A stretch of 32,000 nt of DNA. It comes from Nitrosococcus oceani ATCC 19707. GTDB lineage: Bacteria; Pseudomonadota; Gammaproteobacteria; Nitrosococcales; Nitrosococcaceae. The notes below the pieces were generated by a model. It was not told the DNA's origin and searched no databases. It worked only from the letters and a program-made list of their open reading frames with translations. Position 1 is the first letter of the stretch, and each line of letters begins with the position of its first letter. Made by a program: the position numbers and the translations under genes. Below are positions 3,638-3,865 of this stretch, piece by piece. Location of the stretch: the NCBI RefSeq assembly GCF_000012805.1, contig NC_007484.1:3120001-3152000 (forward strand), written 5' to 3'.

Positions 3638-3738
3638 CATCAAATCCACCTGTGCGGCGGTGAAAGGTTATTCAATTAAAAAACTAAAATTTTCTAAACC
3701 GCCTCCCTTTTTTCTAATCCATTTTCACGGCGGTGAAC
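3638..3738 (-). ncRNA. Degenerate mini-CRISPR (psiR1 - 25-nt pseudo-spacer - psiR2); candidate CreR/CreA-like crRNA-resembling regulatory RNA
   Basis: Minus strand 3738->3638 reads GTTCACCGCCG[TGAAAATGGATTAGAAAAAAGGG]AGGCGGTTTAGAAA | ATTTTAGTTTTTTAATTGAATAACC | TTTCACCGCCGCACAGGTGGATTTGATG. psiR1 keeps both stem arms (CCGCC/GGCGG) and an exact 8-nt 5' handle, TTTAGAAA. psiR2 matches the array repeat at 22/28, including 18/20 in the hairpin part that stays on a mature I-F crRNA (one change gives a G-U pair). The discarded last 8 nt are only 4/8. Confidence 0.7.
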
Positions 3739-3838
3739 CTATTCATAAAGCCTCATTTTTAGCCTGAAGGCGGCGATAACTTTAGCACGCCCAGTTGTAA
3801 AAAGGGACTTGATCAATGGGTACACTATATCTAAATAG

Positions 3839-3865
3839 ATTTTTTTAATTATAAAACTAAAATGG
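3839..3865 (-). promoter_or_regulatory. Predicted Csy-complex binding site (partial protospacer plus CC PAM) for the pseudo-spacer, inside the divergent cas promoter region
   Basis: Minus strand 3865->3839 reads CC|ATTTTAGTTTTATAATTAAAAAAAT. Against the pseudo-spacer, positions 1-11, 13-17, 19-20 and 22-23 are identical. Mismatches are at 12, 18 and 24 (every sixth base) plus 21 and 25. The 5'-CC is the type I-F PAM. The site is 67-93 nt upstream of the csy1 start. Confidence 0.6.

Follow-up and report, generated by a model that had tools for sequence, protein, structure and literature searches.

The Type I-F1 Locus of Nitrosococcus oceani

The DNA considered here, a window of 32,000 nucleotides (nt) from Nitrosococcus oceani ATCC 19707 (contig NC_007484.1, positions 3,120,001 to 3,152,000; all coordinates below count from the first letter of the window), carries a type I-F1 CRISPR locus, whose Csy1, encoded at 3932-5284, is identical to Noc_2752 of this strain. 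The locus is divergent, with cas2-3 and cas1 on the minus strand and csy1-4 and a seven-repeat array on the plus strand. The 313-bp intergenic region between cas1 and csy1 holds both a degenerate mini-CRISPR (mini-array) and a site resembling its pseudo-spacer, referred to below as the target. The mini-array is quite probably the gene of a CreR-type regulatory RNA resembling a CRISPR RNA (crRNA), and most likely this short guide RNA would send the Csy (Cascade) complex of the same system to the shared cas promoter region, turning the system down. The genes and the canonical array are located as follows.

2-2734, minus strand: cas2-3, next after cas1, leaving the window at its left end.
2731-3618, minus strand: cas1 (Pfam Cas_Cas1, E=2e-17), with the mini-array inside its 5′ leader.
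3932-7926, plus strand: csy1-csy2-csy3-cas6f operon (cas8f, cas5f, cas7f, and cas6f; Pfam Cas_Csy1 to Cas_Csy4).
8058-8445, plus strand: canonical CRISPR array, seven repeats of GTTCACCGCCGCACAGGCGGTTTAGAAA with 32-nt spacers.

The product of the csy1-csy2-csy3-cas6f operon is the effector that would carry the guide and be repressed by it, and the crRNAs of the canonical array, each of whose seven repeats scores 44.6 bits against Rfam CRISPR-DR4, would compete with the guide for Csy proteins. Over its in-window part cas2-3 is intact, since tblastn with the N. halophilus Cas2-3 returns one high-scoring segment pair (HSP) at 85% identity over residues 1-906. The possibility that cas2-3 is missing or destroyed, considered as no long open reading frame (ORF) was listed for 1-2730, is ruled out by this intact HSP and by the ORF leaving the window end.

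Anatomy of the Mini-Array

The mini-array comprises two degenerate repeats, psiR1 and psiR2, on either side of a pseudo-spacer, psiS. The initial annotation, made from the letters alone, had placed a repeat-like pair around a 25-nt pseudo-spacer on the minus strand between cas1 and csy1, and direct reading agrees with it in all coordinates and lengths.

3691-3738, minus strand: psiR1, degenerate repeat made of GTTCACCGCCG (3738->3728), a 23-nt replaced loop, and AGGCGGTTTAGAAA (3704->3691).
3666-3690, minus strand (3690->3666): psiS, the pseudo-spacer or guide, ATTTTAGTTTTTTAATTGAATAACC, 25 nt versus 32 nt in the canonical spacers.
3638-3665, minus strand (3665->3638): psiR2, degenerate repeat, TTTCACCGCCGCACAGGTGGATTTGATG.
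3646-3698, minus strand: predicted mature crRNA-like RNA of 53 nt, comprising an 8-nt handle, the 25-nt guide, and a 20-nt hairpin, as derived from the type I-F crRNA processing rule.

Conservation of the two repeats is uneven, and each element of the unevenness described in the initial annotation was found again on re-reading. The last 14 nt of psiR1 are identical to the canonical repeat and take in the 8-nt 5′ handle TTTAGAAA (3698->3691). Nucleotides 1-20 of psiR2 (3665->3646) match the repeat at 18/20, one of the changes (C18>T) making a G-U pair, and its tail matches at 4/8 only. Decay is accordingly selective: the handle (8/8), the exact 3′ stem arm, and the hairpin part of psiR2 are kept, and the psiR2 tail and the psiR1 loop are lost. 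The 5-bp hairpin of psiR2, with a loop as in the canonical repeat, folds alone at -8.2 kcal/mol; the first 20 nt of psiR2 would be the 3′ hairpin kept on the mature RNA, with a predicted Cas6f cut after G3646. For psiR1, all 28 model positions of Rfam CRISPR-DR4 are aligned, with an insertion, at 29.7 bits (E=0.0015), which is below the gathering score of 35, and its fold in isolation has a 6-bp stem and a 25-nt loop. The RNA fold of the whole leader is unremarkable (z=-1.35). A third decayed repeat at 3780->3762 was considered and ruled out (local alignment to the repeat, P=0.14).

The mini-array is not a functional immune array, as its spacer is 25 nt, the tail of psiR2 is retained at 4/8, the loop of psiR1 is replaced, and two repeat units only are present. 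The mini-array is probably transcribed together with cas1, because the 19 nt between psiR2 and the cas1 ATG are too short for a promoter and no promoter is predicted inside the mini-array.

The Guide and Its Target

The target lies 173 nt upstream of the pseudo-spacer and is flanked by a CC protospacer-adjacent motif (PAM).

3839-3865, minus strand: target, CC PAM (3865->3864) followed by ATTTTAGTTTTATAATTAAAAAAAT (3863->3839).

The pseudo-spacer and the target are identical at positions 1-11, 13-17, 19-20, and 22-23. Among the five mismatches are positions 12, 18, and 24, as the initial annotation of this CC-flanked partial match had it; positions 21 and 25 are the other two. When every sixth position is set aside, the target matches psiS at 19/21 with a contiguous seed of 17, and of the 5071 CC-flanked sites that the 32-kb window has on its two strands, the runner-up reaches 14/21 with a seed of 0. 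None of 20,000 shuffled pseudo-spacers reached 19, even without the demand for a PAM, and the same holds for 20,000 shuffles of the intergenic core, which is 26% GC. The match is far beyond chance, and these counts uphold the earlier judgement that PAM, seed, and mismatch periodicity are hard to obtain together by chance despite the AT-richness of the region. Furthermore, an exhaustive scan of all guide starts against all CC-flanked intergenic sites returned one pair, in which the guide begins right after the handle, and an equivalent single pair was returned by the same scan in both N. watsonii and N. halophilus.

The statistics bear on the explanation that the mini-array is a non-functional relic, i.e., a decayed upstream CRISPR array, with the likeness of psiS to the target arising from AT-rich composition or an old duplication. 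Many I-F loci have a second array upstream of cas1, and the intergenic region is indeed AT-rich; nevertheless, composition-matched shuffles do not attain the observed match, the mismatches gather at every sixth position, and a relic does not account for decay that spares the parts kept on a mature crRNA and removes those that processing discards. Evidence from relatives, given below, bears on the same explanation.

An origin as a viral or plasmid crRNA-like anti-CRISPR mimic (Cracr/Racr) was also considered. A scan of viral contigs with the 19-nt pattern of handle plus seed gave 13 matches, none with an adjoining repeat hairpin; they are therefore regarded as chance AT-rich matches. Comparison of 3630-3870 with phages and plasmids by blastn returned no match, and these two results rule the mimic out.

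Conservation in Nitrosococcus

In N. watsonii (locus L001) and N. halophilus (locus L002), the mini-array and a CC-flanked target are kept at the equivalent place. At position 1 of the pair, N. oceani has A in both guide and target and the other two species have G in both; at position 14, N. watsonii has T in both and N. oceani and N. halophilus have A in both. The alignment of orthologues for covariation, which the initial annotation had recommended, thus finds both partners changed at two positions across the three species. All three species have mismatches at positions 12 and 18, and the target of N. watsonii also departs at position 6; positions 6, 12, and 18 are those flipped out by the type I-F complex. 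An extra mismatch at position 15 is observed in the N. watsonii target.

Two further observations concern these species. The cas2-3 of N. watsonii (L001 1308-4815) consists of two ORFs of 490 and 662 aa, versus a single ORF of ~1160 aa in relatives, which may reflect a frameshift or a pseudogene. In N. halophilus psiR1 (L002 5760-5810), the handle TTTAGAAA occurs twice, 20 nt apart, and the element is composed of a full degenerate 28-nt repeat, 7 nt, and the last 13 nt of a repeat. This composition suggests that two repeats of an older array were fused by a deletion, which gave rise to the replaced loop of psiR1.

Distant Relatives

Fourteen Csy1 homologues were found in a large protein collection, and their loci, retrieved one by one by encoding contig apart from L004, which came from a metagenome scan, all have the divergent cas1|csy1 layout. 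Scans of genome contigs with the Csy1 alignment and with Csy3 yielded no confirmed relative. Three distant metagenomic loci (L004, L015, and L016) have Csy1 proteins 31-34% identical to that of N. oceani in the alignment and 36-38% identical in best local alignments, and each has a handle-defined guide and a target.

In L015 and L004, the repeat ends in GGCGGCTTAGAAA, the mini-array handle CTTAGAAA is exact, and the guide begins AATGTCGGATT. The target, upstream on the same strand, reads CC AATGTTGGATT at its start in L015 and CC AATGTAGGATT in L004; agreement covers positions 1-5 and 7-11, and the base at position 6 varies and does not match. In L016, the handle is TTTAGAAA and the 25-nt guide is ATTTAGTTGTTGAGTAAGAGTACCC (beginning ATTTAGTTGTTGAG); its target, CC ATTTATTTGTGTAGTAAAATTAGC (beginning ATTTATTTGTGTAG), matches at positions 1-5, 7-10, and 13-17. 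The first mismatch of guide and target therefore falls at position 6 in each of the three loci. The CC PAM is present in 6/6 loci that carry a handle-defined guide, in each of which 0-2 of 5000 shuffled guides attain the observed seed. The pattern of a conserved psiR1 handle and psiR2 hairpin recurs likewise in L001, L002, L004, L015, and L016. As judged from their unrelated sequences, L004/L015, L016, and Nitrosococcus represent three independent guide-target pairs that follow the same rules, and the distant loci are stronger evidence than conservation within the Nitrosococcus trio.

By contrast, seven loci (L003, L005, L007, L008, L010, L012, and L014; five distinct intergenic sequences) keep a psiR2-like hairpin and have no handle or target, and targets of their pseudo-spacers were found nowhere in those loci. 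The exception is L010: at the homologous position, which is 67 nt from the csy1 start, its pseudo-spacer matches at 16/20, but the flank reads CG and position 2 differs; this looks like a decaying target. The initial annotation had raised the question of whether relatives keep the repeats and lose the complementarity, and the answer is divided: the pair is kept in N. watsonii and N. halophilus, and handle and target are gone in the seven loci. The regulation would therefore be dispensable, or was lost in part of the clade.

The relic explanation gains from this progressive decay in seven related loci with no detectable target, and from the resemblance of N. halophilus psiR1 to a fused repeat and partial repeat. 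Against it stand the CC PAM in all six loci, the changes in both partners at positions 1 and 14, and the two more independent pairs of unrelated sequence at the equivalent position, and it is considered improbable.

Other observations in these loci are as follows. A different conserved block, GCTAAAGCTGGGCGGGTTAGAGACGATGACTAAAGCCAAG, lies ~40-80 nt upstream of csy1 in L003, L005, L010, L012, and L014, at the place of the Nitrosococcus target. In L010, a metagenomic relative, cas2-3 is fragmented (374 and 631 aa; 1-3282) and csy3 is truncated (229 aa; 6765-7454), and the system appears to be decaying together with its mini-array.

A hairpin is predicted upstream of cas1, at the place of psiR2, in 11/13 related loci, and its stems differ (CCGCC/GGUGG, CUCGCC/GGCGAG, CUCUCU/AGAGAG, UUCUCU/AGAGAA, and CUGCU/AGCAG). 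Its fixed distance from cas1, also in loci without handle and target, favors a cis-acting element of the cas1 mRNA, in which the psiR2 hairpin would be a Cas6f binding and cleavage site or a weak attenuator tuning cas1 and cas2-3, with DNA targeting secondary or absent. A T-rich run follows the hairpin in several loci (L007/L008 at ~5880-5900, L015 at ~1795-1815, L004 at ~5735-5760, and L016 at 1140-1154), and the L016 copy is scored as terminator-like by the scanner; the hairpin with its T-run may have a second role, either as an attenuator or in forming the 3′ end of the transcript that carries the guide. Individual hairpin energies are, however, mostly no better than those of shuffles, and a cis element leaves the handle, the 25-nt guide, the PAM-flanked target, and the changes in both partners unexplained. 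As a replacement for the guide, the element is unlikely; it is compatible with the CreR-type explanation and not exclusive of it.

Promoters and Geometry of the Divergent Region

Two promoters facing away from each other are predicted around the target.

3848-3876, minus strand: predicted leftward promoter TTAAAA (3876->3871)-17-TATAAT (3853->3848), the top promoter-like site of the region (10/12).
3868-3896, plus strand: predicted rightward csy1 promoter TTGTTT (3868-3873)-17-TATATT (3891-3896), with hexamers kept in three Nitrosococcus species.

Both promoters had been proposed in the initial annotation. The overlap of the target with the leftward TATAAT is confirmed, the -10 and start site of this promoter falling inside the protospacer, and its score is the region's best; the promoter would drive the leader, the mini-array, and cas1-cas2-3. 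The rightward TTGTTT/TATATT stands beside the target as described. It is absent from the scanner list in N. oceani, where its -35 scores only 3/6, and is listed by the scanner in N. halophilus as TTGATA-17-TATATT; across the three species the promoter reads TTGyTT or TTGATA-17-TATATT, with conserved hexamers and a variable 17-nt spacer.

Counted from the PAM, the csy1 -35 begins at 2 bp in the Nitrosococcus trio, at 1 bp in L016 (a perfect TTGACA), and at 13 bp in L004 and L015 (TTGACT). In 6/6 loci, the PAM is thus 1-13 bp from the predicted rightward -35, and 59-77 nt separate it from the start codon of csy1. In N. oceani, N. halophilus, and L016, the -10 and the start site of the best leftward promoter fall within the protospacer. 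The distance from target to psiR1 varies from 4 nt to ~100 nt. Since the geometry around the PAM is constant and this distance is variable, the conserved feature is a predicted Csy binding site wedged into a divergent promoter pair.

A conserved block, TTTACA-N17-TATCGCCGCCTTCAGGCTAAAAAT, was observed in the interval that separates psiR1 from the target (window 3755-3800, minus strand). Its parts TTTACR, TATCGT, and, after these, CGCCTTYAGGCTCAA are kept in the Nitrosococcus trio and in L003, L005, L010, L012, and L014, where the guide target is lost, and the spacing of TTTACR to TATCGT is 17 or 15 nt among loci. The block is a candidate second promoter, regulator site, or RNA element.

The ~100-nt leader (3838->3739) is also where a toxin would be expected under CreTA/CrePA addiction, in which the targeted promoter drives an RNA or small-protein toxin and the mini-array is the CreA antitoxin. 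In Acinetobacter and P. aeruginosa, such I-F mini-arrays come paired with a CreT or CreP toxin, the protospacer in N. oceani covers the -10 of a leftward promoter, and the leader has an open frame in 3/3 Nitrosococcus species (28, 28, and 41 codons, with GTG/ATG starts) as well as short AUG-AGG and AUG-AUA mini-ORFs. Yet no Shine-Dalgarno sequence precedes any candidate start, and the frame of N. oceani is part of an accidental 100-codon ORF running antisense into csy1. The differences of the frame between N. oceani and N. watsonii (3/3/4 at codon positions 1/2/3; 3 synonymous and 7 non-synonymous by hand count) are not a coding pattern, and the AUG-AGG/AUG-AUA mini-ORFs differ among the three species. 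Moreover, the gap from target to psiR1 is 4 nt in L016 and is the promoter itself in L004 and L015, so that a toxin has no room there, although these loci retain a guide and target of the same logic. Given the substitution pattern, the missing Shine-Dalgarno sequence, and relatives that have no such gene, a leader-encoded toxin or small protein is thus rejected; from the sequence, an unconventional RNA toxin is judged unlikely. Addiction as a whole is given little credence, and a standalone CreR fits better than CreA/CreTA because the leader frame looks non-functional and L016, L004, and L015 leave no room for a toxin.

Proposed Mechanism of Autorepression

The CreR/CreA-type interpretation put forward in the initial annotation is supported by the statistics, the orthologues, the independent pairs, and the constant PAM geometry, and its CreR form is the better fit. 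According to the proposed mechanism, the mini-array would be transcribed leftward as part of the cas1 leader, and Cas6f would cut at the bases of the psiR1 and psiR2 hairpins, releasing a 53-nt RNA with the TTTAGAAA handle, the 25-nt guide, and the 20-nt hairpin. This RNA would assemble into a shortened Csy complex, which would recognize the CC PAM at 3865-3864 and pair with the plus strand at 3863-3839 through positions 1-23 except 12, 18, and 21. The bound complex would not trigger Cas2-3, i.e., binding would occur without cutting despite the extensive complementarity, because a 25-nt guide would keep the R-loop below the 32 bp needed in type I-F1. The complex would lie 2 bp from the csy1 -35 and over the leftward -10 and start site, and from there it should repress the effector operon and probably also the guide gene and cas1-cas2-3. 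The outcome would be negative feedback on free Csy complex, relieved when competing crRNAs or anti-CRISPRs take functional Csy away.

A further proposal, advanced tentatively, is that a single Csy-guide site in the bidirectional promoter region controls the effector operon, cas1-cas2-3, and the guide gene together, with the guide cut from the cas1 mRNA leader by Cas6f, one per transcript. If true, a self-limiting stoichiometric feedback loop would tie together guide production, adaptation, and interference.

Several points weigh against this account. The promoters are predicted by consensus matching: TTGTTT is a weak rightward -35, N. halophilus does not conserve the leftward -35 (its TATAAT -10 is kept), and the leftward -10 is weakened to TATTTT in N. 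watsonii. A second promoter that serves the mini-array and cas1 independently of Cascade could reside in the TTTACR-N17-TATCGT block, which is nearer psiR1. Repression from a PAM-side site upstream of a -35 is no more than plausible, and Cas6f cutting at psiR1 is predicted with uncertainty, the 5′ end of the RNA being uncertain because the psiR1 hairpin has a 25-nt loop. The change in both partners concerns two positions only, and conservation within Nitrosococcus is by itself modest evidence because the three intergenic regions are 88% identical overall. The seven loci that keep the psiR2-like hairpin and lack handle and target also belong here.

Relation to Known CreR and CreA Systems

Regulatory mini-arrays of type I-F1 have been described and validated, and the possible novelty that the initial annotation had left open for this instance is not borne out. 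In a survey of all complete genomes, Shmakov et al. (2023; 10.1101/2023.03.03.530964) reported I-F1 mini-arrays whose spacers are shorter, whose PAM is CC, which mismatch their targets at positions 6 and 12, and which are directed at the cas8f promoter. One of them, from P. aeruginosa YL84, was validated with a luciferase reporter, and a P. aeruginosa I-F1 mini-array with a short spacer and these two mismatches represses the Cascade promoter without DNA restriction (10.1101/2023.03.03.530964). The N. oceani element resembles these in its two repeat-like sequences around a spacer shorter than 32 nt, CC PAM, seed-proximal pairing, csy1 (cas8f) promoter target, and mismatches at every-sixth positions, and Cascade-dependent repression without cleavage is expected. 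The topology is different: in the reported cases, cas1-cas3 run in one direction with the Cascade genes, transcription of the mini-array is reported to oppose that of cas3, and the target is downstream of the mini-array, whereas in Nitrosococcus cas1-cas2-3 is divergent from csy1-4, the mini-array in the cas1 leader points away from csy1, and the target is upstream in the bidirectional promoter region. A literature search found no paper mentioning this Nitrosococcus mini-array, the supplementary lists of the Shmakov et al. (2023) survey being outside that search.

CreR was defined by Liu et al. (2023; 10.1101/2023.03.10.532045), who validated it for types I-B, I-E, and V-A and listed or predicted creA-like elements for I-F. 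As in CreR, the N. oceani mini-CRISPR is degenerate and standalone with no evident toxin, psiR1 and psiR2 retain the 5′ and the 3′ handle, respectively, and a PAM-flanked target adjoins the -35 of the effector promoter; the expected effect is Cas autorepression responsive to crRNA load and anti-CRISPRs. The CreR genes that have been validated are transcribed from an untargeted promoter of their own, located upstream of the cas promoter, whereas in N. oceani the target covers the likely promoter of the guide, so that the guide would repress itself. The I-B CreA of Haloarcula hispanica represses two divergent promoters flanking one target (10.1101/2023.03.10.532045), and N. oceani is similar in having a single Cascade site between or on two divergent promoters, for which joint repression is expected; in the archaeal system the second promoter drives the CreT toxin, and in N. 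oceani it would drive the guide and cas1-cas2-3 with no detectable toxin.

CreTA/CrePA modules of type I-F are known in A. baylyi ADP1, Acinetobacter sp. WCHA45, and P. aeruginosa (CreTA1 and CreTA2) (10.1101/2024.01.05.574328; 10.1101/2024.10.29.618823). Pseudo-spacers of I-F CreA/CreR are typically 23-27 nt with a median of 25, and P. aeruginosa was observed to make a CreA2 of 54 nt (10.1101/2024.10.29.618823). The N. oceani pseudo-spacer, at 25 nt, is within this range, and the element shares with I-F CreA the RNA architecture, the ~25-26 nt pseudo-spacer, a mature RNA of ~53-54 nt, the CC PAM, and a target abutting the -35; I-F CreA guides differ in that they act on a gene for a toxin, CreT RNA or CreP protein, between cas3 and csy1, and no such gene is supported in N. 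oceani. In type I-F1, complexes with short spacers still bind, and only R-loops of wild-type length trigger Cas2-3 (PMC7296934).

Only the topology differs, namely a guide gene in the divergent cas1-cas2-3 leader and a target upstream in the bidirectional promoter region. The tentative wiring of guide, cas1-cas2-3, and effector under one site would set the N. oceani element apart from the validated CreR elements, which have separate untargeted promoters.

Neighboring Genes

Past the CRISPR array, the first gene (8883-10355) has a 490-aa product that combines fibronectin type III and PLAT/LH2 domains, which is unusual for a bacterium. At ~10 kb from the array, genes for a KfrA_N-domain protein (18261-19313, minus strand) and an IS605 OrfB/TnpB-like protein (20259-21587, minus strand) hint at mobile-element remnants near the locus. 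A DUF4743/NUDIX-like gene (~283-286 aa) adjoins the 3′ end of cas2-3 on the opposite strand in L001, L002, L003, L005, L007, and L008; this synteny is kept in every relative with enough flank, and the equivalent position of N. oceani is beyond the left end of the window.

Perspective

The N. oceani element is a further example of a known regulatory device and opens no new category of system. It represents a conserved and well-supported case of crRNA-like autoregulation of type I-F1 in a marine ammonia oxidizer, far from the Pseudomonas and Acinetobacter models. With three independent pairs at one promoter position, natural variation alone supports the rule that every sixth position need not pair, and likewise the rule of a short guide, whose shortness would prevent cutting. 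Furthermore, the divergent topology suggests that the adaptation genes and the guide itself may sit inside one feedback loop.

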